From Thermofilum pendens Hrk 5 (lineage in GTDB: Archaea > Thermoproteota > Thermoprotei > Thermofilales > Thermofilaceae): DNA of 32,000 bases. The notes beneath the pieces are model-generated. The model had not been told where the DNA came from. It ran no database searches and worked only from the letters and a program-made list of their open reading frames with translations. The stretch lies in assembly GCF_000015225.1 (NCBI RefSeq), contig NC_008698.1, forward strand, positions 1,650,001-1,682,000, read 5' to 3'. Below are positions 12,586 through 30,397 of this stretch, in pieces. The position numbers and the translations under genes are program-made. Numbering within the stretch: position 1 is the stretch's first letter; every line of letters begins with the position of its first letter.

Positions 12586-12792
12586 GCGCGTCCCGTAAAC
12601 ATCCTTAAATATATTTTTATGTAGGATTATTTTCGACAGGAAAAAGCTTGGTAAAATTAAAAATAGTAATAATGCTACAGGAATAGATGCCCCTAACTTA
12701 TATGCAGTTGAAAGAACATAAACGGCAACAAGTACCATTAAGATAGCAACTTCGATTGTCCGCTCTGACAAATTTTCACCCCTCGGAAACAT
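12514..12792 (-). CDS. Hypothetical small membrane protein (about 92 aa from the internal ATG)
   Basis: From MFPRGENLSERTIEV there are two hydrophobic segments (AILMVLVAVYVLSTA, IPVALLLFLILPSFFL). The C-terminal ~25 codons read into the duplicated dehydrogenase fragment, so the present end is probably not native. The N-terminal part of the 151-aa track ORF overlaps the GT4 gene out of frame and I discard it. Confidence 0.25.
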   Translation of the reverse strand: MFPRGENLSERTIEVAILMVLVAVYVLSTAYKLGASIPVALLLFLILPSFFLSKIILHKNIFKDVYGTRAVGRDHGASRRYRLQAHNRRGKG

Positions 12793-13984: not shown

Positions 13985-14146
13985 TCTTCTAGCCCCCTCT
14001 TGCTGAGGGTTGTAGGGGTAAATATTCTTAGAACCCCGACCGAGTGCCCCATCTTGGACCACTTCTCGGCAAAGAAGCCTACCCTCGCCCAAGCCGCGCC
14101 TGGGAACGGATTCGGGAAGCCGAGGAAAAGCAAAATTCTCATGCGA

Positions 14147-16470: not shown

Positions 16471-17618
16471 TGAATACTTCCAGCATTATTTCTCCTACAG
16501 CAGGCTAGCGTATCGTAGAGTCTGGCGAACTCCCTTGCAATAATGTTGATGTCGTAGCGCTCGGCTCTCTTTCTCAGTGTTTTCTCCTCGAAGGTATAGC
16601 TGTTGAACCTGACTATAGCTCTGGCCAGCACTCTTACGTCATCCTTTGGCACAAGTATGCCTGTTGCACCGTGCTCCACGACTTCGTTGAGCGGTGGTAT
16701 GTCGTAGGCTATTACTGGTACTCCGGCGGCGAGCGCTTCTATGAGCACGATGCCGAATCCCTCGGGGTACCCGAGGTGGATCAGCGCCTGAGCTTTTGAA
16801 AGCAGACTCAGCTTTTCCTCTTCGCTTACTGATCCCAGCAACTGAACGTTCCTAACGAGTGAAAACTTTCTTATGAGCTGGGCTAGGTACGGTCGTAGAG
16901 GCCCCTCGCCCACTATGAGAAGCTTGGCGTTGGGCTCTGCCTTGGCTACCGCTTTGAAGGCTACTATCGCGTGGTCGTAGTGCTTCCTTTTCTCCAGCCT
17001 TCCCACCATGATGAAGGTGTTTTCCTCTGGATCTCTGCGTACCGAGAGGTACTTCCCAGTATCTATGCCCGGAGGGATCACAACGATGCCGCCCTTCCTC
17101 ACGGCTCTGAGCGAGGCTAGCTTTTGCCTGACGCTCTTTGAGACTGTAAGTACGACGGTGCAGGGGCTGTTGACCTCGAATACATCCTGTACCGCTACCT
17201 TGGCGAGCTTGGGTATCACCCCGGAGAATTGCGCTGTTTCTTCGAGGTGATGTATTGAACATACTTTTGGCACACTATTTACAATAAACCAGGGTATTAA
17301 GTTGGGAAAATGGTTGTTGAAGTGTAGGATTAACTCTTCCTCACCGGTGCACTTAACTATTCTTTTGAGCATTTTCGTCGATAAATTCAGAAATTTTACT
17401 GCATTCTCGGGTTGTGCTGATGGAAGATCATCCCGGTACACATTAAGATTCAAAATTCTTACATAATCTTCCTTTTGGAGGCTTTCCTCAACACGCCCCG
17501 CAATTATATCTATGCGATATTTTCCAGCTATTTTTTTCATTACTTCGTAGAGAAAACCTACACCGCCACTTTTAGTTGTTAAGTAGTCCGTTAAAAATAT
17601 TATTCTGGTTTCACGCAT
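16467..17618 (-). CDS. Family 4 (GT-B) glycosyltransferase
   Basis: Motifs are MVGRLEKRKHYDHAI, LLIVGEGPL, and YPEGFGIVLIEALAAGVPVIAYDIPPLNEVVEHGATGILV. The ATG overlaps the upstream stop by 8 nt. GC drops sharply in the 5' third of the gene. Confidence 0.9.
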   Translation of the reverse strand: MRETRIIFLTDYLTTKSGGVGFLYEVMKKIAGKYRIDIIAGRVEESLQKEDYVRILNLNVYRDDLPSAQPENAVKFLNLSTKMLKRIVKCTGEEELILHFNNHFPNLIPWFIVNSVPKVCSIHHLEETAQFSGVIPKLAKVAVQDVFEVNSPCTVVLTVSKSVRQKLASLRAVRKGGIVVIPPGIDTGKYLSVRRDPEENTFIMVGRLEKRKHYDHAIVAFKAVAKAEPNAKLLIVGEGPLRPYLAQLIRKFSLVRNVQLLGSVSEEEKLSLLSKAQALIHLGYPEGFGIVLIEALAAGVPVIAYDIPPLNEVVEHGATGILVPKDDVRVLARAIVRFNSYTFEEKTLRKRAERYDINIIAREFARLYDTLACCRRNNAGSIQ

Positions 17619-18675
17619 TTACTCTCATCGTCTGAAGCTCTCCTAAAAATCTGAGGTAATTGTTGACGAAAGTCTGAATGGTGTAGCCCGATATATTGGG
17701 CGTGCAGGTACTGGTTTCCTTGGCTACTTGTTCCGCAATTTCTCTCAGGTTTTTGGCTATGTAGCCGCAACCTGTCTCTTCTACTATTTCGACTGCAGCA
17801 TTGAGCCCTGTGTCGAGGACTATGGGTGTTGCTCCGCATAGGATTGCTTCGAGGGTTGCTATGCTGAATCCTTCGGCGTCTGAGAGGTTTAGGTAGTACT
17901 TGCTGCGCGCGAGTAGTTCGAGTTTTTCCTCTTCGCTTGCCTTCCTGTAGCTGTGCACCTCGTGGTGTAGCTTTTCGAGCTGCGCGGTTACTTCGTTGTA
18001 GAGTGGGCCGTCTCCTACTACTGCTACTCGGAGGGGCTTGTCTACCTGCCTGAGTACTTCTATTAGCCTCCACCAGCCCTTTGTGTACGTGAACCTGCCG
18101 ATCATGGTGACGTCTATGTCCCTGCTTCGCCCCCTGTACTTCGCGTAGTCGTCGGGGTTCAGACCTATGGGTACCGGTGCTACCTTCACGGTGCCCACCT
18201 CGCTTAGGATCCTGTTGGCCACGAGCTTGGAAGGTGTGATTACGAGCACGGCTTTCCTCAGTAGCCTTTTCTCCGCGATGGCGGCGAGTGTTCCCAGAGG
18301 CTTGGAGAAGTAGTGCTCCCAATATTTTCCCCAGTACTCGTGGTACGTCAGCACGAAGCTACGTGGCTTCATGAAAAGCGCGGTCGTGTACGGCACCGTG
18401 ACGTCTACCACGTCGCACTTCAGCTTTTCAACGAGCTTCGCGGTCTTCCAGCCGAACTCCAGCGCTGGGAGTAGGCGCCTCCTGCCCTTCTCGTCGTAGA
18501 GCCTAGGTGGGGGTCCCACGGTCGCTAGGGGGATTTCGCTTTCGCCGTAGTCGTACGTGACGTATACGACGTCGTGCCCTCTCTTCATAAGCTCTTTGGC
18601 GAGGATGTAGTACCTCCTCTCTGCCCCGCCGTAGGAGTGAGGCCATAAATGCGAGCAAACAAAGCAAACTTTCAT
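17611..18675 (-). CDS. Family 4 (GT-B) glycosyltransferase
   Basis: Motifs are MKVCFVCSHLWPHSYGGAERRY, MIGRFTYTKGWW, VAVVGDGPL, and SDAEGFSIATLEAILCGATPIVLDTG. Confidence 0.85.
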   Translation of the reverse strand: MKVCFVCSHLWPHSYGGAERRYYILAKELMKRGHDVVYVTYDYGESEIPLATVGPPPRLYDEKGRRRLLPALEFGWKTAKLVEKLKCDVVDVTVPYTTALFMKPRSFVLTYHEYWGKYWEHYFSKPLGTLAAIAEKRLLRKAVLVITPSKLVANRILSEVGTVKVAPVPIGLNPDDYAKYRGRSRDIDVTMIGRFTYTKGWWRLIEVLRQVDKPLRVAVVGDGPLYNEVTAQLEKLHHEVHSYRKASEEEKLELLARSKYYLNLSDAEGFSIATLEAILCGATPIVLDTGLNAAVEIVEETGCGYIAKNLREIAEQVAKETSTCTPNISGYTIQTFVNNYLRFLGELQTMRVNA

Positions 18676-18710: not shown

Positions 18711-19499
18711 CTAGCGCAATGCTTCCCGGTTGCCGCCCAAGATCTTGGAGGCTTCGTCTAGCTCTTTGAGGGTGTTCAGCGGCAACCATGCGTGGTGGGG
18801 TACGGGGTATGCGTGTAGCCTGCGTTGCTCTGCGAGCAGGGGTAGCAACGTTGACTCGAATTCTACCGCGCTGGGCGAGTCCATGTCTACGACCTCTAGT
18901 AGTAGCTTTAGGGCTTGGGGCTCGAAGGCGTACAGCCCTATGCTCGCGTGTATCGGTAGTACCGGCTTCTCCTTGAAGCTTACAGCCATTCCCTCCGCGT
19001 CTATCTCGACCACGCCGTAGGGGAGCGCTAGCCCGAGTGTCACCGCTACGCTCGCCCACGCCCCCATCCTCCGCGCCGCCTCTACGTGGCTCGCGAGGAA
19101 CCTTAGCGGCAACGTGTCGTCTAGGTAGAGGTCGTCCGGGAAGACTACGAGCGCCCTCCTCTCCGGGTCCACGGCGCCCGTCTGCAGCGCGTGCTTCAGC
19201 GCCTTCCCTTTCCCCACTTTGGGTAGGGGTGGGTCCATCGATACCTTTACGTTTACTCCGAGCTTTTTCCCGGCTTCCCGCGCTTTCTCGGCTACGGGTT
19301 CCTGCCTTGTTAGGACTGTGAAGTCCTTGAAGCCGCACCTCGCGTAGTACTCGATGCAGTGCTCTAGGAGGGGTTTGCCGTTGAGTTCTAGGAGGGGCTT
19401 GGGCACTGGTACGAGCCCCATTCTTCTCCCTTCCCCGCCGGCCATTACTACTACCTGCGTCTCGGAGGCTTCTCTCGCTACCTGCTCGATGGCGTTCAC
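18711..19499 (-). CDS. Sugar-1-phosphate nucleotidyltransferase (NTP_transferase family)
   Basis: It has the N-terminal pyrophosphorylase loop VVVMAGGEGRRMG...PKPLLELNGKPLLEH and a central FPDDLY. The track start is a GTG and the exact start is uncertain. Sugar and nucleotide specificity cannot be determined. Confidence 0.85.
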   Translation of the reverse strand: MNAIEQVAREASETQVVVMAGGEGRRMGLVPVPKPLLELNGKPLLEHCIEYYARCGFKDFTVLTRQEPVAEKAREAGKKLGVNVKVSMDPPLPKVGKGKALKHALQTGAVDPERRALVVFPDDLYLDDTLPLRFLASHVEAARRMGAWASVAVTLGLALPYGVVEIDAEGMAVSFKEKPVLPIHASIGLYAFEPQALKLLLEVVDMDSPSAVEFESTLLPLLAEQRRLHAYPVPHHAWLPLNTLKELDEASKILGGNREALR

Positions 19500-19534
19500 G
19501 CCGTTAACCCTTGTACCTAAAGCGTATGCGGTGG

Positions 19535-20524
19535 TTATGGAAGTCGCCTAGAGTCGGCGTCTTTCTTGCTCGGTTGTTTTGTGGTGGCTTTTAGCTCGGC
19601 TTCGAGCCTTGTTAGTCGCTCTGTTATTCTGAGCTCCAGCCTTTTGAGGTAGAGGGACATTATCGCGTTGAGCAGGGCTACGAGGCCCACGCCTGTCCCC
19701 ACGATTGCTATTATGCCCCATACTTGGTGCTTGACTCCCTGTACTAGCCAGCGGTAGCCGACCCAGGCTGCCAGCACGAGTGATGGTATGAGTACGATTG
19801 AGGCTGCGGAGAAGAATAGGAATACGGGGTTGTAGCGGAGCGCGAGCCTGAACGCGTCGAGGACTATTCTCAGCCCGTGCCTCTTCCTGAGCTTGGGCTC
19901 GCCGACCCTCGGCCTGTACTCTATCGGTATCTCCCCGATTCTCCTCGTCGTGGACGCTACGTGAGCGGCTATCTCTACCTCCACGCTGAAGCCTTTGGAC
20001 TCGAACTGGACTTCCCTCGCTACCTCCGTCCTGACGAGGTACATCCCACTACACACGTCGGAGAGGTTTGTCCCGAAGAGAACGTTGAACGTCTCAGTGA
20101 TTACCCAGTTCCCGAACCTGTTGAGGAGTGGTATGTTCTCGCGCCCCCTAGTTCTTGCCCCTATGACTTCGTCTAGCCCCCTCTCCCTAGCCGTCCTCAG
20201 AAGCTCTGCGACGTGCCGCGCTGGGTACGTGTAGTCGCCGTCCATCACGACTATGTAGGGCGTTTCGACGTACCTGAGCGCGGTTCTAACGGCGTCCGCC
20301 TTGCCCCGGCCCTCCTGGAGCACGACCCTGGCCCCCTTCTCCGCGGCGACTTCCCTCGTCCTGTCCGTGCTTCCCCCGTCGACGACGAGTATGTTCGTCC
20401 ATCCCTCGCCTTTAAGCTCGTCTATCACGAGCCCTACCCCCCTCTCTTCTTTCAGCGTTGGGATGACTATCGTTACCTCGGAGGCCCAGGGGTTCGCGGG
20501 AGTGCTCGTCGCCCTAGCCTTCAC
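19535..20524 (-). CDS. GT2 polyprenyl/dolichyl-phosphate hexose synthase (Dpm1/GtrB-like) with two C-terminal TM helices
   Basis: Motifs are VTIVIPTLKEE, ILVVDGGSTDRT, and VVMDGDYTYP (DxD). The C-terminal hydrophobic pair is FLFFSAASIVLIPSLVLAAWV and VWGIIAIVGTGVGLVALLNAIM. This is the GtrB/DPM-synthase architecture. The start is a GTG. Confidence 0.85.
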   Translation of the reverse strand: MKARATSTPANPWASEVTIVIPTLKEERGVGLVIDELKGEGWTNILVVDGGSTDRTREVAAEKGARVVLQEGRGKADAVRTALRYVETPYIVVMDGDYTYPARHVAELLRTARERGLDEVIGARTRGRENIPLLNRFGNWVITETFNVLFGTNLSDVCSGMYLVRTEVAREVQFESKGFSVEVEIAAHVASTTRRIGEIPIEYRPRVGEPKLRKRHGLRIVLDAFRLALRYNPVFLFFSAASIVLIPSLVLAAWVGYRWLVQGVKHQVWGIIAIVGTGVGLVALLNAIMSLYLKRLELRITERLTRLEAELKATTKQPSKKDADSRRLP

Positions 20525-20924
20525 CCCTGTAGAATGGTGGTGTGTTTATCCAGGCTAGCCCTAGATGTAGTACTAGCTGGGGCCCCGCCTTCGAAAGCTC
20601 TTCTGCGACGGCGAGGGCCCCTATCTTCAGGGCTAGCTGTATCCTCTTGGAGAGCTGTTTTAGGCCCTCCTCGAAGGCCTTGAAGACCTTGGCCTTCTCG
20701 GGCCACACTTTCTCCAGGATCTTGAGTAGCTGTTCCTTTAGGAGGGGGCTCTTTATAGCCTTGAGCCTCCCGGCGAGCTTGAGGAGCGCTCTTTCCTCCG
20801 CGGAGAGCCTCCAGAAGGTTCCGAGCCTCAGCGCGCGCTTGTAGGCGGCGGAAACAAGCGATGGCGTCAGCGAGGGTACTGCAGGCGATGGAGGCTCTCC
20901 GCGCGCGCCCCTCAAGCGAGACAC
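20514..20924 (-). CDS. Small all-helical orphan protein (~136 aa), first gene behind a TATA-like box
   Basis: Only the C-terminal part of the 656-aa track ORF looks coding (SAAYKRALRLGTFWRLSAEERALLKLAGRLKAIKSPLLKEQLLKILEKVWPEKAKVFKAFEEGLKQLSKRIQLALKIG...WINTPPFYRGEG). The only in-frame starts are GTG 20924 and TTG 20915. TTTATTAT lies 24 nt upstream of the GTG. The stop overlaps the GT2 start by 11 nt. I recognise no family. Confidence 0.55.
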   Translation of the reverse strand: MSRLRGARGEPPSPAVPSLTPSLVSAAYKRALRLGTFWRLSAEERALLKLAGRLKAIKSPLLKEQLLKILEKVWPEKAKVFKAFEEGLKQLSKRIQLALKIGALAVAEELSKAGPQLVLHLGLAWINTPPFYRGEG

Positions 20925-20963
20925 CGCCTTTCTTAGTCGAAGAAAAAATAATAAAGCTTTTCT
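20821..20963. repeat. Direct repeat copy 1 (promoter plus first ~34 codons of the small gene)
   Basis: It aligns by eye with 28414-28557 in the same orientation, with 4 substitutions and a 1-nt indel. It ends exactly at the stop codon of the 479-aa membrane-protein gene (20963). Confidence 0.9.
20925..20962 (-). promoter_or_regulatory. TATA-like box for a leaderless transcript of the small gene and downstream operon
   Basis: The minus strand reads CTTTATTATTTTTTCTTCGACTAAGAAAGGCG-GTG. The TATA-like octamer corresponds to plus-strand 20948-20955, 24 nt from the GTG. Confidence 0.45.
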
Positions 20964-22402
20964 CAGCCTTGGTACTCGTAGACCGCTATTTCCCCGAATC
21001 TTTTCACTTCTTTGAAGCCTGGGGGTGGGTTTGGCATGTTGTACCAGCCTTTTCCCGCGACCCACCAGATCGTGTAGACCTTCGCGCCCGTGGCTGCCTC
21101 TCTGCGCGCTGCCCGCAGGATTTCTTCCGCGGTGTTGGGCCTGTACTGGTTCGGCGCTGAGAGCATGTGCTCGCCTACGCGTATTAGCTTCGAGTTTTTC
21201 GCGTATAGTGCCGCCCAGCTGTGGAAGGCTTCGTGTAGTACTAGGGTTTTGTTTCCGGGTAGTGTGTCTACCCACTTTACTGCCTGTATTGCGCTCGGGG
21301 TGTCGGATAGTGGTAGGGTGTTTTGGAGCATGGATGTCTGCATGTAGTGTTTGTAGATGTTCCAGTCTCCGAAGTACTTGTTGAACTGTTGCTCGGGGGG
21401 TAGGGCTATGTAGGTCGCGGTCATCGAGGCGTATACGGCTACGAGTGCGAGCGCGGCTTTCCTCGCGCGCCCGGGTTTTTCGAGGAGTTTTTCCAGCCCG
21501 GCGCCCGCCGCCAGGGATGCGGGGTAGTTTAGGAGTATCGCCCAGCGGAACCAGAGCACCGTTGTTCCTGTCAGGAAGGAGTACGTCATCGCGAGGCAGG
21601 TGGCTGTCCAGGCGAGCGTCCCCCTGTCTCTCAGCGTGCTTGCGCCGTAGGCTAGTAGGGGGAGGAGGGGTGCGTAGAGGTACGCTAGGAAGCCTGTCGC
21701 GTACGCTAGCATGTACGCTGGGTCTACCCCGGCGAGCCTCTCGGCGGGTACGGCCAGCGCCCCTGTCTCCGGGGTGTAGACCTGGTAGAGTAGGAGGGCG
21801 CCCGCCGGTAGCGCTGTGAAAGCCCTGAGGGCTTCCCTGGGGGTCTTCGAGGATAGGAGCCTTGCCGCCGCCACCGCGGCTAGTATCACTGTTATGAACT
21901 CGTGGGTCCAGCCTATGAGGAAGGCTAGCGCCGCCTGCGCGGCTGCGGCTGCGCGCCCGGGCTTCTTGTCGAGCTCCATGTAGGCTAGGAGCATCGCTGT
22001 TGCGAGCATTTGCCTGTGCATCTCCCAGGATATCCTGAGCCCCACGAAGTAGGTCGTTGAGATGAGGGCGGCCGCGAGGGAGGCTTTCTCGCCGAGCCCG
22101 GTTGACCTGGCGTAGCGGTAGACGGTGTAGCCTAGGAGCCCGTTGAGGATGGGTGCGAGGAGCTTGACCGCTAGGATGGGGTCTCCGAGGGCCTTGTATG
22201 CGAGCGTTACGATTAGGAAGTACAGGCTCGTCGTCTTGAAGAGCTGGGGGATGCCCATCGAGAGGAAAACCCCTTGGTAGGCGTTTACGGCGTATATGCC
22301 GACGGGGTCGAAGCCTACCGTGTAGGGCCATGAGAGGATTTCGGGGATCGTTCTTACGAGCGCCGGTATTAGTGCTGAGAGGACGGCGTTCCTCCTGCTC
22401 AT
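20963..22402 (-). CDS. Polytopic membrane protein with a C-terminal soluble domain; GT-C-like glycosyltransferase candidate, 479 aa
   Basis: About 10 or more hydrophobic segments span residues ~5-345, followed by a soluble tail of ~130 aa. It starts with ATG 3 nt after the upstream stop. It sits next to the Dol-P-hexose-synthase-like GT2. The functional call rests on architecture and context only. Confidence 0.6.
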   Translation of the reverse strand: MSRRNAVLSALIPALVRTIPEILSWPYTVGFDPVGIYAVNAYQGVFLSMGIPQLFKTTSLYFLIVTLAYKALGDPILAVKLLAPILNGLLGYTVYRYARSTGLGEKASLAAALISTTYFVGLRISWEMHRQMLATAMLLAYMELDKKPGRAAAAAQAALAFLIGWTHEFITVILAAVAAARLLSSKTPREALRAFTALPAGALLLYQVYTPETGALAVPAERLAGVDPAYMLAYATGFLAYLYAPLLPLLAYGASTLRDRGTLAWTATCLAMTYSFLTGTTVLWFRWAILLNYPASLAAGAGLEKLLEKPGRARKAALALVAVYASMTATYIALPPEQQFNKYFGDWNIYKHYMQTSMLQNTLPLSDTPSAIQAVKWVDTLPGNKTLVLHEAFHSWAALYAKNSKLIRVGEHMLSAPNQYRPNTAEEILRAARREAATGAKVYTIWWVAGKGWYNMPNPPPGFKEVKRFGEIAVYEYQG

Positions 22403-22405
22403 CGT

Positions 22406-24325
22406 CTATGCCTCTAGGTGTCTGGTGGTTGGGGGGATTTCTGGGTCTACTACTCCTTCGCCTTGCGCGGCGTTCACGGTCCATTCTCCTAGTAGTAGCT
22501 TTCCGTCGGGTGTGTAGGCTTGTAGGGTTATGTTTGCGGGGGGTATTCTCGGTAGTAGTGCGTGCCCCGTGGAGTTCGTCTTTGCGGTTGAGAGGGTTGT
22601 TCGCCCTAGCAGTGCTACTACGAGTATCCCGGTTGCGGGTTTTCCGTCGGGGGTTGTGAAGGCGACTGCTATTTTTCGGAGGTTTGCCTTGAGCGTCGCG
22701 TTGGTGTCGGAGTTTACGCTGATTTTTAGTGGCCCGGCTACTTCTAGCCCTGCGTAGATCGCGGTGAGCGTTGCTTCTCCTTCCACGTGTTTTACCTCGG
22801 CTTCTCCCTTGGCGTCGGTTTCTCCTGCTTTGAGCCCGTTTAGTAGTAGCGTTGCGCCGGGTACTGGGTCTCCGCAGGCGTCTACTACTCTTACTCTGAG
22901 GGTGTAGCCGGGGGGCTTGACTGTCACGGTGAGGGTTAGCGTCTCGTTGTGCGCTATCGTCGAGACTTTTACTGTGACGGTGTAGTTGCCGGGGGCTAGC
23001 CCTTGCCGCGCCGATACCTTTAGCCTCGCCGTTAGGTTGGCTTTCCCGGTGCTGGGCTCGACCTCAGCTGTTATCCCGGGTGGGGCTTCCGCGCTTAGGG
23101 TGATGGGTAGGGGTAGCTGGTGGGTTACGTTGAGCGTTATCGTCGCGTTTTCGCCTGGGTAGAGGGCTGGGACCGCTCCCGCCGTTACCGAGGGCTTGCT
23201 TGCTCTCTGCAGTGCGTACCTCGCGGCGCTCACTATCATGGCGTTCGTCTTGTCGGTTATCGCGTAGACGACGTTGCCGTTTTCGTCGACTCCCTCGTAG
23301 AAGCAGTTGGGCGTTTTAGCCTTCATCACGTACTCCGCTAGGAAGGCTGTGTAGTTGGTGTTCCAGATGGCGTGCATGCCTAGAGCCGCCTTGGCGTATA
23401 CTACGGGCGTCATGCTGAGCTTTCCGAGGGAGCCGCTCCACACGGTCCACGTCTCGCCCGTGTATATGTCGACTATCCACTCGTAGATGTAGTACGGGGG
23501 CGCGTTGACCTGACCCTCCGTGAACGCGGTGGGCTTACCCGTGGCGAGGTAGCGGTTTTCCTGCGCCTTGTAGACCTTGTACGCCCACTCGTAGAACTCG
23601 GGCGGGGGGTCTAGCTCGAAGATCGTGAGGAGTATCGGCTCCATCGTTACCTCCACGTAGGGTAGCCGGACCCCGTAGGCGTCGACAGTCCTCGTGTAGG
23701 GTAGCCTCCCGAGCATCGAGAGGGCCTTCATGACCTGGGGGGTGTTGAAGCCCCAGAGGTGGAAGCCGTAGGCGTAGTAGTACGAGTAGAAGCCGCTGTC
23801 CGGCACCGAGCCCGCGAAGGCCGAGAAGCCGTTCCTCTCGACGACGTAGTCCACGGTCGGCGCGAGCTCCGGGAAGCTCTTCTTCAGCCTGTAGAGGGCT
23901 ATCAGCAACCTCCCGGCGTCGCTGGGGTTCGAGGGCCCCGCATTCTCCGCCGGCATGCCCGTGTCCGAGCTGTACGCCGAGTACGGCACGCCGGAGGGGT
24001 GTAGCGGCCTCGTGGAGAGGAAGGCGAGCACTTTTTCGGCCCTGCTGATAGCCTCATCCCTGGATATCAGCCCGAGCCACGCCGCGTCGACTATCGCCGA
24101 GAGGTAGCTGCCGACGTCCCAGTCCGTCACGTAGTGCCAGGAGGGCGTCGCGTAGTTGATCCCCCTCTGGCTCAGCCCGAAGCCGGGGGAGAAGTAGCCC
24201 CACGCCGCCCTCGCTAGCTCCAGCCAGTCTACGGGCGGCTTCGCCTCGACGCTCGCCTGGCGCTGCGGGGGTACGAGCGTAGCCGCTACGAGCAGTACGA
24301 GGACCGCGAGAGCCGCTTTCTTCAC
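22406..24325 (-). CDS. Secreted protein: N-terminal helical (alpha/alpha)6-like glycoside-hydrolase-like domain plus Ig-like and CarboxypepD_reg-like beta domains, 639 aa
   Basis: It has a signal peptide (MKKAALAVLVLLVAATLVPP). The N-terminal domain (~400 aa) is aromatic-rich and helical (TDWDVGSYLSAIVDAAWLGLISRDEA, FYSYYYAYGFHLWGF), reminiscent of DUF3131/glucoamylase-like six-hairpin folds. The C-terminal segments APGNYTVTVKV and LRVRVVDACGDPVPGATLLLNG...TDAKGEAEV are typical of Ig-like and carboxypeptidase-regulatory-like domains. The GTG start is preceded by GGGTGAGGGG. Confidence 0.65.
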   Translation of the reverse strand: MKKAALAVLVLLVAATLVPPQRQASVEAKPPVDWLELARAAWGYFSPGFGLSQRGINYATPSWHYVTDWDVGSYLSAIVDAAWLGLISRDEAISRAEKVLAFLSTRPLHPSGVPYSAYSSDTGMPAENAGPSNPSDAGRLLIALYRLKKSFPELAPTVDYVVERNGFSAFAGSVPDSGFYSYYYAYGFHLWGFNTPQVMKALSMLGRLPYTRTVDAYGVRLPYVEVTMEPILLTIFELDPPPEFYEWAYKVYKAQENRYLATGKPTAFTEGQVNAPPYYIYEWIVDIYTGETWTVWSGSLGKLSMTPVVYAKAALGMHAIWNTNYTAFLAEYVMKAKTPNCFYEGVDENGNVVYAITDKTNAMIVSAARYALQRASKPSVTAGAVPALYPGENATITLNVTHQLPLPITLSAEAPPGITAEVEPSTGKANLTARLKVSARQGLAPGNYTVTVKVSTIAHNETLTLTVTVKPPGYTLRVRVVDACGDPVPGATLLLNGLKAGETDAKGEAEVKHVEGEATLTAIYAGLEVAGPLKISVNSDTNATLKANLRKIAVAFTTPDGKPATGILVVALLGRTTLSTAKTNSTGHALLPRIPPANITLQAYTPDGKLLLGEWTVNAAQGEGVVDPEIPPTTRHLEA

Positions 24326-24347
24326 GCGCCCCTCACCCGCCCCGTGC

Positions 24348-25610
24348 TTATATGGGCTTCGGAGTCCTTCTCCAGACGCGCGGCCTTCTCAGGATTATCT
24401 CGGCGAGGGCGTGGAGGGCGACCGCGGAGAGCGTGAACCAGTACGCGTAGATAACCGGGACCCAGGCTAGGTTCTTCGCGCTTACGGGCCTCTCGCTGAG
24501 CGCGAGGGCGACGCTGACCGAGAAGAGGGACACGGCGTTCAGCGCGGCGACGAGGGCGGCGGGTGTCGAGAAGTGGTTTACGTGGGGCAAAGCCGTCGAG
24601 GCGAGCCAGGCGGCCACCGCTAGGAGGCTGAGCGCCATCAGGTAGGGCCCCGCCGAGAGGATGGCGGCGTCCAGCCCCCTCCTGCCCGCGAGGGCGAGGC
24701 GCAGGTGCCTCGCGAATGCCTCCATGTACCCCCTATACCACCTGTTCCTCTGCACGGCGAGGCTCCTCAGCGAGGTCGGCGCCTCCTGCCAGGAGACGAC
24801 GTCGTTCGCGTACTTCACCCTGTAGCCCCTGGCGAGGAGGTCCATCGATAGCTCCAGGTCCTCCGCGAGGGCGTCCTCCCTCCACCCCCCGACCTCCTCG
24901 AGCGCGCTCCTCTTAACGAACTGGCAGCTCCCGGTGAGCGGTACGAAGAGCCCGAGCCTCTCCCTCCCGCGTATGAGCGCGTGGAACCAGGCCTTCTCCT
25001 CCTTGGAGGCTACCCTCGCGAGCACCGATTCGCGCTCGTTGAGTACCAGCGTCTTCCCCTGGACCGCGGCGACCCCCGGCTCCTCGAGGTGCTTCACGGC
25101 GCGCCTTATGGCGTCCCTCTCGGGGACGCTGTCCGCGTCGAACACCGCTACGACCTCCCCCGTCGCCTCCCTAAGCGCCCTGTTCAGCGCGGCGGGCTTC
25201 CCGCGGGGCTCCTCCTCCCTTATCAACCTGACCGCGCCCGGGTACCTTTCTCCGGCTCTCCGCACTATCTCCTCGACGTACCCGTCCGAGCTGGCGTCGA
25301 CGACTATCACTTCGAGCTTCTCCAGGGGGTAGTCCGAGGATAGGATAGCGTTGAGGCAACGCTCGACGCGCCTCCCCTCGTCCTTCGACGGCACTATGAC
25401 TGTCACCCTGGGAAGCCCGTTCCCCGGGTCGTCCCCGCTGCCCCGGGGGGCTAGTAGCCCGGCGACGATTATGGGGGCGTGGTAGGCGGACCACGCGAGT
25501 ATGCCCGCGAGGGTGAGGAGGGAGAGGGCGTCTAGAAGCAGGTAGAAGGCTTCCGGGAGCAATCCCGGAGGGGCTACGGCTCCGAGTAGCGCTGACGGCT
25601 CCGACGTCAT
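24348..25610 (-). CDS. Processive membrane-embedded GT2 polysaccharide synthase (BcsA/PgaC/NodC-like), 420 aa
   Basis: It has an N-terminal TM pair, then VTVIVPSKDE, VIVVDASSDG (D), VFDADS (DxD), TGSCQF, LAEDLELS (ED), and AVQRNRWYRG (Q-x-x-R-W), followed by 3-4 C-terminal TM helices. This is the complete motif set of processive beta-glycan synthases. Confidence 0.9.
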   Translation of the reverse strand: MTSEPSALLGAVAPPGLLPEAFYLLLDALSLLTLAGILAWSAYHAPIIVAGLLAPRGSGDDPGNGLPRVTVIVPSKDEGRRVERCLNAILSSDYPLEKLEVIVVDASSDGYVEEIVRRAGERYPGAVRLIREEEPRGKPAALNRALREATGEVVAVFDADSVPERDAIRRAVKHLEEPGVAAVQGKTLVLNERESVLARVASKEEKAWFHALIRGRERLGLFVPLTGSCQFVKRSALEEVGGWREDALAEDLELSMDLLARGYRVKYANDVVSWQEAPTSLRSLAVQRNRWYRGYMEAFARHLRLALAGRRGLDAAILSAGPYLMALSLLAVAAWLASTALPHVNHFSTPAALVAALNAVSLFSVSVALALSERPVSAKNLAWVPVIYAYWFTLSAVALHALAEIILRRPRVWRRTPKPI

Positions 25611-25642
25611 TGTCTCGAAACCTCGTTAAGCTTCTGCGCCAA

Positions 25643-25665
25643 GAACTTTTCTAAAATTTAAAAGT
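25643..25665. promoter_or_regulatory. Inverted repeat spanning the TATA-like box of the GT2 synthase promoter
   Basis: AACTTTT (25643-25649) and AAAAGTT (25659-25665) are perfect reverse complements separated by CTAAAATTT. They lie 33-55 nt upstream of ATG 25610 on the minus strand. A GGCTTT-GTC-AAAGCC hairpin at 25682-25696 plus a T-rich run could terminate the upstream gene. Confidence 0.3.
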
Positions 25666-25727
25666 TTTCGCTCGTTCGAGGGGCTTTGTCAAAGCCGACT
25701 AAAAGAGAGAAGCCTCGCCGAGCGCTG

Positions 25728-26939
25728 CTAAAGCTCGAATTCTATTACCGGGCCGCACTGCTTTTCGAGCTTCGCCGCCCTGCGCACCAGCAGTGCCACT
25801 GCCGCAGCGGAGGCGAGGATTATGGCTAGGAGGGCGAGCCCCGTCGTGACCCTCGGCGCTTCGCCCGGCGGAACCGCGGGGTACTCCCTGGTGGCGTTGC
25901 CCTCTATAAGCGCCACCGAGACGGGCTCCACGGGGTACGACGAGAGCAGGGGCCAGAATGCCTCGCCGAGGGTTAGGGAGCCCCTGCCGCCGGTGAGCGT
26001 GACGTTGTAGGTGTGGGGGCCTACCCTCACCGCGGCGTAGCCGTTTCCCCCGCCCTCCACCGATACCTCGTAGGCGTAGGGGAGGAAGCCGAGGAGGGGT
26101 TTCAGGTCGACGAGCTTCGCCGCGGGTACCTCGGCTCTGCCTATAGCCTTCTCCGAGTCTCCCAGCCTGAGCACGACGCGGGGCGATGCGCCTCCGACGC
26201 CTACCGTCGAGTATGCCTCGGCGACTACCCTGATGGAGGCTGGGGGCGACGCGTAGCCGTCCACGACTATCGAGCCGTTCTCCGCCTTGACGGAGCCGGA
26301 GAAGTTCGCCGCCTCCACGACCCTTAGGTTCTTCAGGGTTGCCCCGGCGACCTCAACCCTCGCCCCGCTGACCGCCAGCCTAGCCGTGGAGTTGCCGCCG
26401 AACACTAGGCGTACTTCCAGCTCGCCCGGCCTGCCGAGCGTTTTCGCCTCCCCGTCTACCCAGCCGTAAAGCCTCAGCTTCTTCACGAGGGTGGCGTTTC
26501 CCACCCCGAGCTTCAGGACGGCTTCCTCCGACTGGTTCAGCGCTGTGAGCCTGAGAGTTCCCGAGAGGGCTACGAGTACCGCTACCCTTCCGCCCGGCTC
26601 GACGCGCGGGGCCTTGAAGAGAGGGTCCTTGGAGGAGTTGTAGGAGCAGGGGCCGGGGGGAGTCTCTAGGAGCGGTGGCACGCTGATTGCGCACTGGAAG
26701 CTCTCGGGCGGCTCCACCGCTAGGTACAGCTTGTCCACGGCTACCTCCTTGTCCGCTGTGTTCACGAATACCGCGGCGAGCCCGCTCCGCGTCGTTGAAA
26801 GCTCTTTGAGGGCGAGCCCCGGCGGGTACACTGTGAGGTTGAGTAGGAGGGGGGTTTCAGGGCGCCGCGTGGATATCGCTAGTACTGGGGATGCTAGGAG
26901 TAGGGCGGCGAGCGCGGCTACCAGGTAGCGCTTCGACAC
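25728..26939 (-). CDS. Surface glycoprotein candidate with signal peptide and C-terminal TM anchor, 403 aa
   Basis: It has a signal-like N-terminus (LVAALAALLLASPVLA), 9 N-x-S/T sequons, and beta-rich V/G/A/L composition. The C-terminus is TTGLALLAIILASAAAVALLV followed by RRAAKLEK. The GTG start has GATAAATACT ~27 nt upstream, consistent with a leaderless transcript. I recognise no family. Confidence 0.7.
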   Translation of the reverse strand: MSKRYLVAALAALLLASPVLAISTRRPETPLLLNLTVYPPGLALKELSTTRSGLAAVFVNTADKEVAVDKLYLAVEPPESFQCAISVPPLLETPPGPCSYNSSKDPLFKAPRVEPGGRVAVLVALSGTLRLTALNQSEEAVLKLGVGNATLVKKLRLYGWVDGEAKTLGRPGELEVRLVFGGNSTARLAVSGARVEVAGATLKNLRVVEAANFSGSVKAENGSIVVDGYASPPASIRVVAEAYSTVGVGGASPRVVLRLGDSEKAIGRAEVPAAKLVDLKPLLGFLPYAYEVSVEGGGNGYAAVRVGPHTYNVTLTGGRGSLTLGEAFWPLLSSYPVEPVSVALIEGNATREYPAVPPGEAPRVTTGLALLAIILASAAAVALLVRRAAKLEKQCGPVIEFEL

Positions 26940-27059
26940 GGGGTGGGACTCGCGCGCAGTATTTATCGCTATCGGGTAGGGGGCTTCCCAGCCAGTCCTC
27001 TAGACAGCCTGGGAAACTGTTAAAGCAAAAAAGCATTAGTTTGCTTGAGAGCAGCGTTG

Positions 27060-27753: not shown

Positions 27754-28038
27754 TTAGGCCTCGAGCCTAGCCAGGGTCCTCGAGTAGAGCCTCTTCAGCG
27801 CCTCCAGCAGGACCCTCCTCACGCCTTCCGGTATTACCTGCACGTCCTCGCGGGTCAAGCTCCCCAGAGACACTATCTCCAAGCCTATGACCTCTCTCCT
27901 CTCGTCGAGCTTCAGGACGATGTTGTCGTTCAGAGGCTCCGAGAAGCTCTCCCTTCCGGGCTCGTCCAGCCACAGGTCCAGGGTGTCGAGCTCCGGAGCG
28001 TAGTAGACGCGTACCTTCACGTCTGCCGCCTCCTCCAC
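27754..28038 (-). CDS. DUF2283-family protein (putative antitoxin partner)
   Basis: VKVRVYYAPELDTLDLWLDEP...NIVLKLDERREVIGLEIVSL matches the DUF2283 pattern (Y-D-x-E-x-D-x-L-x-I...G-I-E-I). The more likely start is GTG 28020, preceded by GGAGGAGG. The track start GTG 28038 is given as the outer bound. Confidence 0.75.
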   Translation of the reverse strand: MEEAADVKVRVYYAPELDTLDLWLDEPGRESFSEPLNDNIVLKLDERREVIGLEIVSLGSLTREDVQVIPEGVRRVLLEALKRLYSRTLARLEA

Positions 28039-28077
28039 ACCACCTCACCTCTGGCCGCTCTTTTAGTTAAATATCTT

Positions 28078-28350
28078 TTAGTTATAGGCCGTTATTATAA
28101 AACCCTCGCTATTCAAGTGCTTAACGACCACACAGATGAGCTTATCCATGTATGTGCCGTAGTACAGGTACACTCTGGGGTCGCGAGGGCTTCTCCTAAC
28201 CTCGAGGAGGTTCGCCAGAGCCTCTCTGACCACGCCCTCCAGGCCCTTCAGCGAGGGGTGCTTAATGCTGACAATGTACTCCCAGTACCCCCTGGAGACC
28301 CTAACTCTGACCCCTAGTTTACTGGTGACCTCGAAGAGCGGCTCGCGCAC
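28078..28350 (-). CDS. Small toxin-like protein (DUF4258 / RelE-barnase-superfamily-like), 90 aa
   Basis: It has the internal motif YWEYIVSIKHPSL and the C-terminal signature DPRVYLYYG...LICVVVKHLNSEGFIITAY. This resembles small toxins usually encoded just upstream of DUF2283 genes. The GTG start is preceded by GTGAGG. The family assignment comes from my memory of the motif pattern, not from a search. Confidence 0.55.
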   Translation of the reverse strand: MREPLFEVTSKLGVRVRVSRGYWEYIVSIKHPSLKGLEGVVREALANLLEVRRSPRDPRVYLYYGTYMDKLICVVVKHLNSEGFIITAYN

Positions 28351-28367
28351 CCGGCCTCACAGGGGTC

Positions 28368-28517
28368 TCAGCGTCCGCATGAGGAAATAGGTGTCACATA
28401 GATCACGCCGATCCCGAACCTCAGCGCGCGCTTGTAGGCGGCGGAAACCAGCGATGGCGTCAGCGATGGTACTGCAGGCGATGGAGGCTCTCCGCGCGCG
28501 CCCCTCAAGCAAGACAC
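28368..28517 (-). pseudogene. Truncated duplicate of the 5' end of the small gene 20514-20924 (49 codons)
   Basis: It has the same TATA-like box, GTG and first ~34 codons (VSCLRGARGEPPSPAVPSLTPSLVSAAYKRALR). It then diverges and stops at TGA 28368, 17 nt upstream of the toxin-like gene start. Confidence 0.5.
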
Positions 28518-28557
28518 CGCCTTTCTTAGTCGAAGAAAAAATTAATAAAGCTTTTCT
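28414..28557. repeat. Direct repeat copy 2 (see 20821-20963)
   Basis: By-eye alignment gives about 96 percent identity over 143/144 bp in the same orientation. Confidence 0.9.
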
Positions 28558-28752
28558 TTTTTAAAGCACTCTCGGGCAGAATATTTTATTCTTTTTATTG
28601 CCCGAAGATAACTACCTAAGAAGCAATGTCCCTCGAGCTCTGACGCAAGCATGTACTTCGTCAGCTCGCCTGGAGTACTGCCTATAACGTTCCCGTGCTC
28701 CATAGGACTCTTAACCCGCGCGCGAGATTTGCGCGCTTTTGGCTCATTGTTT

Positions 28753-29601
28753 CTACTCGCGTTGTCTGAATAGCTCTTCGTAGTACTCTTCGAGCCTGGG
28801 CTTCATGTCTAGGAACTGCTTTAGGACTTTGACTTCGTACTCGGCTCTCGCCTCCGAATCCCTGTCTAGAACCAGTACGCCCGTTGAGACTACCTCGTAG
28901 GCTAGCGTGAGTGGAGCTTCGTTTAGGTGTACGAGGTCCACGTCTAGGCCTAGCGCGTCTTCGAGCTCGTTTTTCAGCTCTACGAGGTGCTTCCAGGAGG
29001 CTTCGCCCCGCGTGTACACCGCTACGTCGATGTCGCTACGACAGCGGGCCTGACCCTTGGCGCGTGACCCGAATATATAGGCGAAGACTACGTTGCTCCT
29101 GTTGCTGAGCACCCTGGCGATTGTCTCCGCGTCTTTCCCGGCCTTTGGGGGGTCTACCCCTCTGTTTTCGGTGCTCCTGGCGATCTCGTAGACTATGTTT
29201 TCTAGCTCTTCGACTTCGCCTAAAGCCTCGGCTAGCTTGCCGTAGTCTATCCTGGCGTAGCCGTGGACGAGCACGTTCCTCAACCCTACCCACAGCTCGA
29301 GCTTTCCGGCGGACGCCGCGCTGAGCATGCCGGCTCCTCGAAGGATTCTGGCAACGTCGCGGTAGCTCTCGGGCTTGCCGAGCCTCAGCAAGGAGCATAG
29401 CCTCATCCCTGCATCGATTACGGCCTCGATCGCCAGGTGGAGGTACCTCTCGACAGCCCCTCTTACAACGTAGTCACCGGCTAGGGCTTCGGGAGAGGCG
29501 CGCCTTCTCAGCTCTTTGAGCAAGCCTATGTATTCCAGGGCGCGCGCCAGCCTCTCCTTAACTATCACACCGGTTACCCCCCTTCTCCTCCGCTTTCGCA
29601 A
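28753..29601 (-). CDS. Fused HEPN (HepT/DUF86-like) and minimal nucleotidyltransferase (MntA-like) protein, 282 aa
   Basis: The N-terminal half carries GLRNVLVHGY (R-x4-H followed by x-Y). The C-terminal half carries FGSRAKGQARCRSDIDV (exact G-S-x10-D-x-D) plus LDVDLV. It is a continuous ORF with no internal stop. The start is either TTG 29601 (track) or GTG 29568, and either one overlaps the upstream gene. Confidence 0.85.
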   Translation of the reverse strand: MRKRRRRGVTGVIVKERLARALEYIGLLKELRRRASPEALAGDYVVRGAVERYLHLAIEAVIDAGMRLCSLLRLGKPESYRDVARILRGAGMLSAASAGKLELWVGLRNVLVHGYARIDYGKLAEALGEVEELENIVYEIARSTENRGVDPPKAGKDAETIARVLSNRSNVVFAYIFGSRAKGQARCRSDIDVAVYTRGEASWKHLVELKNELEDALGLDVDLVHLNEAPLTLAYEVVSTGVLVLDRDSEARAEYEVKVLKQFLDMKPRLEEYYEELFRQRE

Positions 29602-30397
29602 GCCTCCTCCTCGTCCACCCCCTAACGAGCGCGGCGTAGAGGTGGAGCTTGTAGACCTCGTACTTGTCCCCGTGCTCCTCCACGGCCTTCCTGGCGAGCC
29701 TCAGGAAGTCCTCCGCCTCTTCCATCGTGAACTCGCCTGGATCCTTCTCCAGGTACTCCCTCAGCTTCTCCACCTCCTCCTTCGTTAGGGGGTTGGAGAG
29801 AAGGCTTAGCACGGACCTCAGCTCGGCGCGGACGACGAGCGCCGTCTTTTCCTTTATAACGCCCTCCGAGGCGAGGTAGTCTATGAGGAACTCCTGGTGA
29901 GACTCGAAGCCCTTGACTACCCTTGAGAGCCTAGATTCAACTTTCTCGAGCCCGTGCTCGACGCCTGCAAGCCTGGACTCCGCCCCCTCGAGCCTCCCTT
30001 CGACCCGCGATAGCCTCGCCTCGACGGCGTCCAGCCTTTCCCCCACGTCCCCCAGTGCTTTCTCCACGCCGTCAACCCTCCTCTCCAGCGCTTCGAGCCT
30101 CCCCTCTACCTTGCTGAGCCTTCCCTCCAGGTCGGCGAGCCTCCTCTCCGCCTTGGTAAGCCTCTCCTGCACTCCTCCAAGATTTTCCTCGACGCTTTCA
30201 AGCCTCTCCTCCACTTTGTCGAGCCTTCCCTCTACGCCTTCAAGCCTCTTTTCCACCCCTCCAAGTCTTTCCTCTACTCTGTCTAGCCTGGCGTTAATCT
30301 TCTCGAACTTCCTGCCGAGCCAGTAGGCCATCGAGGAGCTGGCAGCCGCTACGCTTATAACGGTCGAGAGGACGGCGAGCGCTACGGGCTCCGCCAA
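29558..30397 (-). CDS. N-terminally membrane-anchored coiled-coil protein with 18 tandem V-E-x-R-L-x-x heptads and a helical C-terminal domain, 279 aa
   Basis: It has an N-terminal hydrophobic helix (PVALAVLSTVISVAAASSSMAYWLG) followed by RKFEK. Residues ~34-161 are uninterrupted heptads (VEERLGG VEKRLEG VEGRLDK ...). A ~118-aa domain follows (SNPLTKEEVEKLREYLEKDPGEFTMEEAEDFLRLARKAVEEHG). The track start is a TTG. An alternative ATG at 30331 would remove the TM helix. Confidence 0.8.
   Translation of the reverse strand: MAEPVALAVLSTVISVAAASSSMAYWLGRKFEKINARLDRVEERLGGVEKRLEGVEGRLDKVEERLESVEENLGGVQERLTKAERRLADLEGRLSKVEGRLEALERRVDGVEKALGDVGERLDAVEARLSRVEGRLEGAESRLAGVEHGLEKVESRLSRVVKGFESHQEFLIDYLASEGVIKEKTALVVRAELRSVLSLLSNPLTKEEVEKLREYLEKDPGEFTMEEAEDFLRLARKAVEEHGDKYEVYKLHLYAALVRGWTRRRLAKAEEKGGNRCDS
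29915..30298 (-). repeat. 21-bp periodic coding repeat (heptad array) inside the coiled-coil gene
   Basis: The units are degenerate at the DNA level (GAG-x-CTC/CGC-rich). They correspond to 18 protein heptads, and the antisense frame gives a long S/L/P-rich artefact ORF (29913-30326, +). Confidence 0.8.

Follow-up and report, generated by a model that had tools for sequence, protein, structure and literature searches.

A conserved three-gene set of Thermofilum pendens as a candidate archaeal operon for making an extracytoplasmic glycan by a synthase-dependent route

Introduction

How archaea make their extracellular and envelope polysaccharides is poorly understood, and literature searches returned no characterised archaeal synthase-dependent system. 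Whether such a system exists in this domain is the question raised by a 32,000-nucleotide stretch of Thermofilum pendens Hrk 5 (contig NC_008698.1, positions 1,650,001 to 1,682,000), which was analysed at its full length and is referred to here as the window. It carries a set of three genes, named the trio, encoding a glycosyltransferase of family GT2 (420 residues), an exported DUF3131 protein (639 residues), and a membrane protein of the GT-C glycosyltransferase fold (479 residues). An original prediction, made from the sequence, had joined these genes and the upstream gene of a 403-residue surface protein into a candidate four-gene exopolysaccharide system.

The trio is a compact and widely conserved candidate for such a system, made of thermostable proteins. 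The pairing of a synthase with a dedicated glycanase is a design rule already known from bacteria; what is new here is the archaeal setting, a glycanase of the β-1,2-glucanase (SGL) type carried on a stalk, and an obligatory GT-C partner. Our preferred reading, for which we consider the balance to be about even, is that the trio forms a conserved archaeal operon for the synthase-dependent assembly of an extracytoplasmic glycan.

Results

Organization and conservation of the trio

The trio is encoded on the minus strand in the order GT2 (24348–25610), DUF3131 protein (22406–24325, GTG start), and GT-C protein (20963–22402), with the gene of the 403-residue protein (25728–26939) upstream on the same strand; these coordinates were read from the list of open reading frames (ORFs) of the window and agree with the original prediction. 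The GT2 and DUF3131 genes are separated by a 22-nt spacer (24326–24347, minus strand) with a Shine-Dalgarno-like GGGTGAGG at 24331–24338, 5 nt ahead of the GTG start, and the GT-C gene begins 3 nt past the stop codon of the DUF3131 gene. Both short gaps had been predicted and are found in the sequence as described. All four genes have homologues elsewhere and are therefore real genes and not chance ORFs. At NCBI, the 639-residue protein matches a T. pendens entry with 100% identity, and T. pendens entries identical to the 420- and 479-residue proteins were likewise found.

Synteny was tested by looking up contigs, starting once from DUF3131 and once from GT2 homologues, and by a scan of a genome collection with one narrow peptide pattern, which gave seven loci. 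The order GT2, DUF3131, GT-C on one strand recurs in T. pendens, Infirmifilum, a Pyrobaculum metagenome-assembled genome (MAG), three Bathyarchaeia, Nitrososphaeria, Caldarchaeum, and Wolframiiraptor. From the DUF3131 side, the trio was recovered in Bathyarchaeota, Nitrososphaeria, Caldarchaeum, Infirmifilum, and Wolframiiraptor, sometimes with a small soluble GT2 inserted, while from the GT2 side (homologues of 45–58% identity) it was present in three of the four sampled loci, namely those of the Pyrobaculum MAG and two Bathyarchaeia. Overall, the GT2 and DUF3131 genes are adjacent in about ten archaeal lineages, which upholds the proposed pairing of a synthase with a dedicated glycanase.

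A variant arrangement occurs in Geothermarchaeales (locus L009), where the GT2 and DUF3131 genes are accompanied by a DUF6541 membrane protein instead of a GT-C homologue; the DUF3131 gene there (7560–12296) encodes a single protein of 1578 residues in which the DUF3131 catalytic domain occurs twice in tandem. The same locus encodes, downstream, an ABC transporter (ABC_tran and FtsX/MacB). In two Bathyarchaeia (L015 and L016), a Ku/LigD cluster for non-homologous end joining and an M10 peptidase gene immediately precede the trio, in the same arrangement in both. The trio there stands outside glycosylation islands, which argues that it is a self-contained module. No exporter gene, sugar transporter, or downstream catabolic enzyme was conserved with the trio in the look-up loci.

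The 403-residue protein is a surface glycoprotein candidate with an N-terminal hydrophobic signal, a C-terminal transmembrane segment (residues 361–389), and nine N-x-S/T sequons, just as the sequon-rich anchored protein had been described in the original prediction; it has no Pfam or NCBIfam match. Upstream of GT2, an orthologue is found in just two other loci, those of Infirmifilum (L006, 32% identity) and of the Pyrobaculum MAG (L014, 27%), and the gene was rejected as a core component because it is absent from the sampled loci of Bathyarchaeia, Nitrososphaeria, Caldarchaeum, Wolframiiraptor, and Geothermarchaeales. In T. pendens, it is preceded by a TATA-like ATAAATA of its own and followed by a T-rich stretch after its stop codon. 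Since it is confined to the T. pendens, Infirmifilum, and Pyrobaculum group and has a putative promoter of its own, the core of the system comprises three genes and not four. The predicted four-gene co-occurrence thus stands for the three genes of the trio and gives way for the fourth, which appears as a lineage-specific accessory gene.

The GT2 protein

The 420-residue protein belongs to the synthase class that includes PgaC, NodC, and BcsA, as indicated by its Pfam, NCBIfam, and PDB matches, its alignment with PgaC, and its hydropathy. It is recognized by Pfam Glyco_tranf_2_3 (2.1e-39), Glyco_trans_2_3 (1.4e-32), and Glycos_transf_2 (5.7e-27). Its translation holds VVDA, FDAD, AEDLE, and QRNRW, and the GT-A domain accordingly displays D158xD160, E250-D251, and Q287xxR290W291. 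Seven archaeal orthologues from six lineages all retain the DxD, ED, and QxxRW motifs unchanged, as does Escherichia coli PgaC, with which the T. pendens protein aligns end to end at 26% identity. Hydrophobic segments at about residues 20–49, 315–342, 349–372, and 381–399 correspond to one or two N-terminal and three C-terminal transmembrane segments flanking the catalytic domain. The synthase motif set, the flanking transmembrane helices, and the BcsA/PgaC/NodC-type architecture of the original prediction are thereby all recovered, and of the models that it named, Glyco_trans_2_3, Glycos_transf_2, DUF3131, and CarboxypepD_reg each found their match in the proteins concerned.

Two more precise identities were considered and rejected. 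PgaC_IcaA is the best NCBIfam model for GT2 (5.3e-38, residues 64–409), but its 131 bits fall far from the 422.3-bit equivalog cut-off of TIGR03937 and a PgaD/IcaD partner is missing: neither the ORF list nor the spacer of the operon contains a gene for a small PgaD/IcaD-like protein with two transmembrane segments. The OpgH (MdoH) glucan synthase model gives 20.7 bits against an equivalog cut-off of 419. The NodC model also scores (3e-23). From the motif set and the class of the protein, GT2 is predicted to be a processive, inverting enzyme that would elongate a β-linked chain from a cytoplasmic nucleoside diphosphate (NDP)-sugar.

The DUF3131 protein

The second protein of the trio is composed of a Sec signal peptide (residues 1–22, 24260–24325, by hydropathy), a catalytic domain of (α/α)6 fold (residues 37–373, 23207–24217, by Pfam, AlphaFold, and Foldseek), and three to four β-sandwich domains including CarboxypepD_reg (residues ~379–620, 22466–23191, by Pfam and AlphaFold), all encoded on the minus strand; it carries nine sequons. 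Pfam DUF3131 (PF11329) matches residues 37–371 over model positions 2–364 of 367 (6.7e-48, 164 bits against a gathering cut-off of 20.3), and CarboxypepD_reg follows C-terminally at 4.7e-10. The AlphaFold model (pLDDT 89.6) displays an all-helical domain followed by the β-sandwich domains, in line with the CarboxypepD_reg-like and Ig-like domains foreseen for this protein. The T. pendens protein has no C-terminal anchor; most orthologues outside its clade possess a C-terminal transmembrane anchor followed by basic residues. Together, the signal peptide and the anchors of most orthologues therefore place the catalytic domain outside the cell, near the membrane.

All Foldseek matches of the catalytic domain among the top 50 are structures of the SGL clan or of the bacterial glucan synthase CGS. 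They include EeSGL1 of family GH192 (8XUJ, 5.5e-9), GH144 entries at ~1e-8 to 1e-6 (5GZH at 8e-8, also 4QT9, 3EU8, and 5Z06), CGS and its isolated cyclising domain of family GH189 (8WY1) at ~3e-7 to 6e-7, and 8RF0/8RF9, with target-normalised TM-scores of ~0.56–0.60 for 8XUJ, 5GZH, 4QT9, and 3EU8. Other high-ranking matches are multidomain β-sandwich proteins (S-layer protein SlaB, pilins) with low TM-scores, which we read as reflecting the modelled β-sandwich stalk. A GH15 glucoamylase identity was rejected, as no GH15 entry occurs among the top 50 matches. The six-hairpin glycosidase-like domain of the original prediction is thus retained, together with its DUF3131 affiliation, while its glucoamylase-like character is replaced by proximity to the β-1,2-glucanase clan and GH189.

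A link to CGS is also detected by sequence. A family profile built from 18 DUF3131 members matches 8WY1 at 3.2e-5 over the N-terminal third only. As an independent test of this link, ndvB of Sinorhizobium meliloti was taken from a replicon of a plasmid collection; the N-terminal part of the middle region of NdvB scores above threshold on Pfam DUF3131, and a part further on scores on Pfam Glycoamylase. hhalign matches the archaeal D136 to the Asp in the DSGNL motif of CGS; a tentative pairing of TAFTEG with WGISEA was not significant and is not used as evidence. No sequence similarity of the family to GH192, GH194, or GH144 chains could be detected, and the DUF3131 proteins of Shewanella have no PDB sequence matches and hence offer no bridge to GH192 or GH194. 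When 1.84 billion representatives (50% identity clustering) were searched with a profile, 377 DUF3131 relatives reached E ≤ 1e-30, including one cluster from the thermophilic bacterium Desulfurobacterium.

D136 and E270 are the sole invariant carboxylates across the archaeal and Shewanella DUF3131 domains, with E348 nearly invariant, Y325 invariant, and Y370 near-invariant. The SGL clan/clan GH-S is defined by a Glu, a Phe, and a Tyr equivalent to XcSGL E239/F286/Y367; its conserved acid is a Glu, and an acidic candidate base occurs at the position of CpSGL E142 (PMC12102758). One invariant Asp and one invariant Glu in the DUF3131 alignment would fit this acid/base pattern, and the glycosidase-like fold expected of the 639-residue protein is found in the GH192, GH144, and GH189 matches, with D136 and E270 as candidate catalytic carboxylates. 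The models support an assignment of the protein as exported and six-hairpin glycosidase-like, nearest to the β-1,2-glucanase clan and GH189, and we infer from this fold an activity on a glycan chain.

The GT-C protein

Neither the 479-residue protein nor its 14 relatives have a Pfam or NCBIfam match at E values up to 1. Its AlphaFold model (pLDDT 86.9, pTM 0.89) clearly identifies it as a glycosyltransferase of GT-C fold: the top 22 Foldseek matches in the PDB all belong to this class, at E values of 1.7e-7 to 2.4e-2, as the original prediction of a GT-C-like protein had anticipated. They comprise STT3 (1.7e-7), ALG12, ALG9, AftA, ArnT, PglB, DPY19, Pmt4, and AftB, and its UniRef label is RgtA/B/C/D-like. 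In GT-C enzymes, the first helix is directly followed by a catalytic acid. In the 15 sequences of the family, E21 and D32 (in GFD) are invariant, and D32 lies just past the first transmembrane helix of the model (residues 2–23), in a stretch that would face outward. A small C-terminal α/β domain contains an invariant WW pair (446–447). The motif WWDYG characterises oligosaccharyltransferases; an identity as the oligosaccharyltransferase AglB was rejected because the protein is too short, lacks this motif, and has no match to the STT3 hidden Markov model (HMM).

AglJ/DPM1-like synthases are encoded next to the trio in Bathyarchaeia, Geothermarchaeales, and Nitrososphaeria (L001/L005, L009, L002, and L016), as would suit a GT-C enzyme that draws on a dolichyl-phosphate sugar. 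In T. pendens, a gene of this type lies two genes downstream of the GT-C gene (19535–20524, minus strand) and encodes a 329-residue polyprenyl-phosphate hexose synthase with two C-terminal transmembrane segments; its NCBIfam matches, AglJ (TIGR04182, 3.2e-66) and dolichyl-phosphate hexose transferase (3.8e-33), are both under cut-off. This synthase probably provides the GT-C enzyme with its lipid-linked sugar donor.

Transcription signals and neighboring genes

A putative archaeal promoter of the three-gene operon (25652–25670, minus strand) was read directly from the sequence: a TATA-like TTTTAAATTTTA at 25652–25663, centred ~48 nt upstream of the GT2 ATG (25610), is preceded by an A-rich stretch resembling a B recognition element, and a GAGG at 25621–25624 stands 10 nt ahead of the ATG. 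At the other end, a T-rich run CTTTATTATTTTTTCTTC just past the GT-C stop codon (20939–20956, minus strand) is the likely transcription stop of the operon and possibly also the TATA element of the next unit. These signals suggest three transcription units: the 403-residue gene alone, the trio, and a downstream unit opening with a small unannotated ORF.

This small ORF (20514–20915, minus strand; TTG start, ~133 residues, helical) lies between the GT-C and AglJ-like genes, its TAG stop overlapping the GTG start of the latter, and has no Pfam match. It is hidden by a 656-residue ORF (20514..22484), which overlaps the GT-C gene in another frame and was rejected as a spurious frame in GC-rich DNA. 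The gene that follows the AglJ-like gene encodes a 262-residue sugar-1-phosphate nucleotidyltransferase (18711–19499, minus strand; Pfam NTP_transferase, 6e-24), a possible source of the NDP-sugar donor.

Further downstream extends a glycosylation island (4131–18675) with an FkbM methyltransferase, six GT4 genes, a UDP-glucose dehydrogenase, two sugar-phosphate nucleotidyltransferases, and, on the plus strand, a UDP-GlcNAc 2-epimerase (4131–5285). Between 19000–27000 and 12000–18000, the G+C content drops sharply, from 59–67% in the operon and its neighbors to 41–50% in the GT4 genes at 12776–17618 (54.5% in the whole window), and by this composition the GT4 block may have been separately acquired. 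A 696-residue polytopic protein of the island (7793–9883, minus strand), with 10–11 hydrophobic segments, PDELVY after the first of them, and no Pfam match, may be a second GT-C-like or a polymerase-like enzyme. A 1293-residue subtilase (Peptidase_S8) with an ASH/β-sandwich domain (39–3920, minus strand) is probably a secreted or envelope protease.

On the other side of the operon, toxin-antitoxin-like genes (27754–29601, minus strand) separate the surface-protein gene from a flippase gene; they comprise a DUF2283/DUF4258 pair and a 282-residue ORF fusing HepT-like RNase and Pol-β-type nucleotidyltransferase domains. A 279-residue protein (29558–30397, minus strand) combines a hydrophobic N-terminal segment with a long coiled coil of RLxxVExRL-type repeats (DUF7310). 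The MOP-type flippase ORF (30587–31828, minus strand, 413 residues) matches only the C-terminal positions 106–274 of the Polysacc_synt models and may be N-terminally truncated, frameshifted, or mis-started.

Discussion

Beyond the locations and folds shown for the three proteins, we infer their activities, donor sugar, processivity, and product, and we propose the following sequence of events. The membrane-bound GT2 would elongate a β-linked chain from a cytoplasmic NDP-sugar, with the tryptophan of QRNRW holding the acceptor sugar, and the chain would pass outward through or alongside its C-terminal transmembrane helices. The exported DUF3131 protein, kept near the membrane on its β-sandwich stalk, would then cut or transglycosylate the chain with its (α/α)6 domain, thereby setting its length and releasing or cyclising it. 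At the outer face of the membrane, the GT-C enzyme would use a dolichyl-phosphate-hexose from the AglJ/DPM1-like synthase to add branches or to attach the chain to its final acceptor. The product would most likely be a glucan-type polymer or oligomer, either kept between the membrane and the S-layer or shed as matrix. The fold of the DUF3131 domain points, speculatively, to a β-1,2-glucan-like product. The corresponding narrower proposal, in which GT2 polymerises glucose, the DUF3131 protein cuts or cyclises the β-1,2-glucan outside the membrane, the GT-C enzyme adds dolichol-derived branches, and the product is held between membrane and S-layer, seems to us rather unlikely.

Several observations weigh against synthase-dependent assembly or against a β-1,2-glucan as its product. 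The solved protein closest to GT2 is PcManGT (6YV7, 9e-32, ahead of BcsA at 2.4e-18), which binds GDP-mannose and is reportedly a single-transfer, dolichyl-phosphate-dependent, non-processive enzyme of an N-glycan cluster. The Glyco_transf_21 model scores 2.9e-15 on GT2, and QxxRW is also found in non-processive GT2 and GT21 enzymes with lipid acceptors. No PilZ match occurs in GT2 (Pfam and NCBIfam), and no gene for a PgaD-like, IcaD-like, or other co-polymerase occurs in the operon; with only ~4–5 transmembrane segments and no such partner, a complete translocation channel is therefore conjectural. On the side of the DUF3131 protein, no solved relative is found with a profile restricted to the C-terminal half of the domain, and the putative catalytic residues could not be matched by sequence to known SGL-clan residues; likewise, in hhalign against the NdvB middle region, the C-terminal half is not significant and the GH189 nucleophile and acid could not be placed. 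The specificity of DUF3131 may also differ from β-1,2-glucan, since a Shewanella DUF3131 cluster carries a GH9 gene and the SGL clan includes an inactive Group 4. A Korarchaeia locus (L017) has a close GT2 orthologue and no DUF3131 gene nearby. The T. pendens trio belongs to a large island with GT4, epimerase, dehydrogenase, and flippase genes, and a lipid-linked pathway would be compatible with this setting too. Finally, literature searches found no study of the trio as a module and no biochemical or genetic data on any of its members.

The main rival is such a lipid-linked glycoconjugate pathway, leading to an N-glycan, an O-glycan, or a glycolipid anchor, in which a PcManGT-like, non-processive GT2 would act with a GT-C enzyme that, outside the cell, transfers the glycan to a protein or lipid or extends it there, and with a DUF3131 protein that trims it after transfer. 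That PcManGT is the best PDB match of GT2 and that the top Foldseek matches of the GT-C protein are oligosaccharyltransferases of STT3 type speak for this explanation, as does the setting of the T. pendens operon among six GT4 genes, an AglJ-like gene, sugar-nucleotide enzymes, and a MOP flippase, with a sequon-rich anchored protein directly upstream in Thermofilaceae and the Pyrobaculum MAG. We nevertheless regard it as improbable. PcManGT has WRIRR where the T. pendens GT2 has QRNRW, so that the QxxRW motif, kept as Q(R/K)xRW in all GT2s of the trio family, is absent from it; the GT-C protein is short and without WWDYG; the trio of Bathyarchaeia stands apart from glycosylation islands; and the characterised relatives of the DUF3131 fold all act on multi-residue glucan chains, not on protein-linked glycans. 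The concern, voiced with the original prediction, that GT2 might group with non-processive enzymes is therefore answered in part: its nearest structure does belong to a reportedly non-processive enzyme, yet it is precisely in the acceptor-binding motif that the GT2s of the trio depart from that enzyme.

A short product rather than a chain is also conceivable, with GT2 acting through a NodC-like closed pocket or as a processive lipid glycosyltransferase to make an oligosaccharide or a glycolipid head group, which the DUF3131 and GT-C proteins would remodel on the outer leaflet. The size and the number of transmembrane segments of GT2, which are NodC/PgaC-like, its scores on the NodC and Glyco_transf_21 models (3e-23 and 2.9e-15), and the absence of a channel-completing partner from the operon would agree with this. 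Known enzymes of the SGL clan, though, require a substrate that occupies at least subsites −3 to +2, the GH189 domain needs a degree of polymerization of 6 or more, and an exporter gene is not conserved with the trio, all of which make a short product distinctly unlikely in our view. A last explanation detaches the DUF3131 protein from its neighbors and makes of it a secreted catabolic glycanase feeding on environmental polysaccharide, the neighborhood then having no functional meaning. The protein is exported, its characterised relatives are hydrolases, and T. pendens is a heterotroph; yet the same gene order, with minimal spacing between the genes, persists across about ten lineages, a C-terminal anchor ties most orthologues to the membrane, and neither a sugar transporter nor a downstream catabolic enzyme is conserved beside the gene. 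We hold this explanation to be very improbable.

Whatever its product, the trio ties DUF3131 to GT2 synthases in archaea as well as in bacteria, extends the structural clan of β-1,2-glucanases into Archaea, and defines a GT-C family that no sequence model yet covers. If the product were a β-1,2-glucan, the system would be the first of its kind in Archaea and a counterpart of the osmoregulated or cyclic periplasmic glucans of bacteria. Glucans lying beneath an outer envelope layer would then not be restricted to bacteria with an outer membrane, and DUF3131 would gain a function, also in the bacterial clusters where DUF3131 genes accompany a BcsA-like GT2.

Comparison with known systems

Among bacterial synthase-dependent systems, PgaABCD/IcaADBC, which makes poly-β-1,6-GlcNAc, offers the closest layout of the synthase: PgaC has the same transmembrane arrangement and the same DxD, ED, and QxxRW motifs as the T. 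pendens GT2, and is likewise paired with an extracytoplasmic processing enzyme, PgaB in E. coli and the DUF3131 protein in the trio. The trio differs from it by the absence of PgaD/IcaD, of a deacetylase, and of a porin (an outer-membrane porin not being applicable to an archaeon), by the (α/α)6 SGL-clan fold of its processing enzyme in place of the PgaB fold, and by its additional GT-C enzyme. The design of a GT2 synthase with a dedicated extracytoplasmic endoglycanase is shared with BcsA/BcsZ, and BcsZ (GH8) is also an (α/α)6 barrel. The GT2 of the trio, however, lacks the PilZ domain of BcsA and has ~4–5 transmembrane segments, whereas BcsA has eight; BcsB is missing; and the glycanase belongs to a different clan from BcsZ. 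Measured against the Bcs, Pga, and Alg systems as a group, the trio shares with them a synthase encoded together with a dedicated glycan-cleaving enzyme, adjacent in about ten lineages, while Pfam and NCBIfam searches of GT2 and the operon genes found no co-polymerase or cyclic di-GMP receptor of the PilZ, PgaD, or Alg44 kind and no export scaffold.

The GT-C partner recalls the three-component systems of extracytoplasmic glycosylation RgtE/RgtA-D, GtrB/GtrC, and Ppm1/PMT, in which a GT-C enzyme stands beside a polyprenyl-phosphate sugar synthase. The GT-C protein of the trio falls outside the Pfam GT-C families and, unlike those of these systems, has a synthase-type GT2 and a glycanase as partners. 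The closest solved sequence relative of the trio GT2 is PcManGT of Pyrobaculum calidifontis (Pcal_0472, PDB 6YV7-9), which shares the catalytic base Asp with it; PcManGT is a membrane GT2 from a crenarchaeon, reported to have a cellulose-synthase-like fold in minimal form.

As regards β-1,2-glucans, the osmoregulated periplasmic glucan system OpgH/OpgG(D) provides a similar succession of steps: a GT2 makes β-1,2-glucan that is released to the periplasm and then processed by a β-1,2-glucanase, whose periplasmic location is assumed in the source. By analogy, it is a possible functional counterpart for a glucan held under an S-layer; the fold of OpgG/D (GH186) differs from that of the SGL clan. 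The best structural matches of the DUF3131 catalytic domain are found in the SGL clan, whose members are described as bacterial except for GH162, which is almost exclusively eukaryotic (PMC12102758); a text search of that paper found no mention of archaea.

Bacterial CGS is a single protein in which a GT2 domain is fused to the GH189 cyclising domain, and it shares with the trio the coupling of a GT2-type glucan synthase to a DUF3131-related (α/α)6 domain. In the trio, these functions are split into separate proteins, the (α/α)6 domain lies outside the cell whereas that of CGS is cytoplasmic, the length-control domain GH94 is missing, and the sequence alignment is limited to the N-terminal third.

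A synthase-type GT2 also directly adjoins DUF3131 genes in Shewanella (L010 and L011) and in an accessory block of Klebsiella, which contains a cellulose synthase, three DUF3131 genes, and OpgC (PMC12974863). The L010 cluster (2132–17488) of Shewanella sp. resembles this block: it encodes, in this order, GH2, GH9, a BcsA-like GT2 of 612 residues (CelA HMM, 4.8e-62), three DUF3131 proteins, a 470-residue protein, a GT2-like protein of 428 residues, a fourth DUF3131 protein, and a 344-residue protein. The Shewanella GT2 is of another subfamily than that of the trio (BLASTP 4e-04), the DUF3131 proteins are single-domain and ~30% identical, and the clusters hold GH2 and GH9 and no detected GT-C homologue. 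The pairing of a synthase-type GT2 with a DUF3131-type fold has thus evolved or been retained in several forms and with differing GT2 subfamilies, which argues for a functional link between the two.

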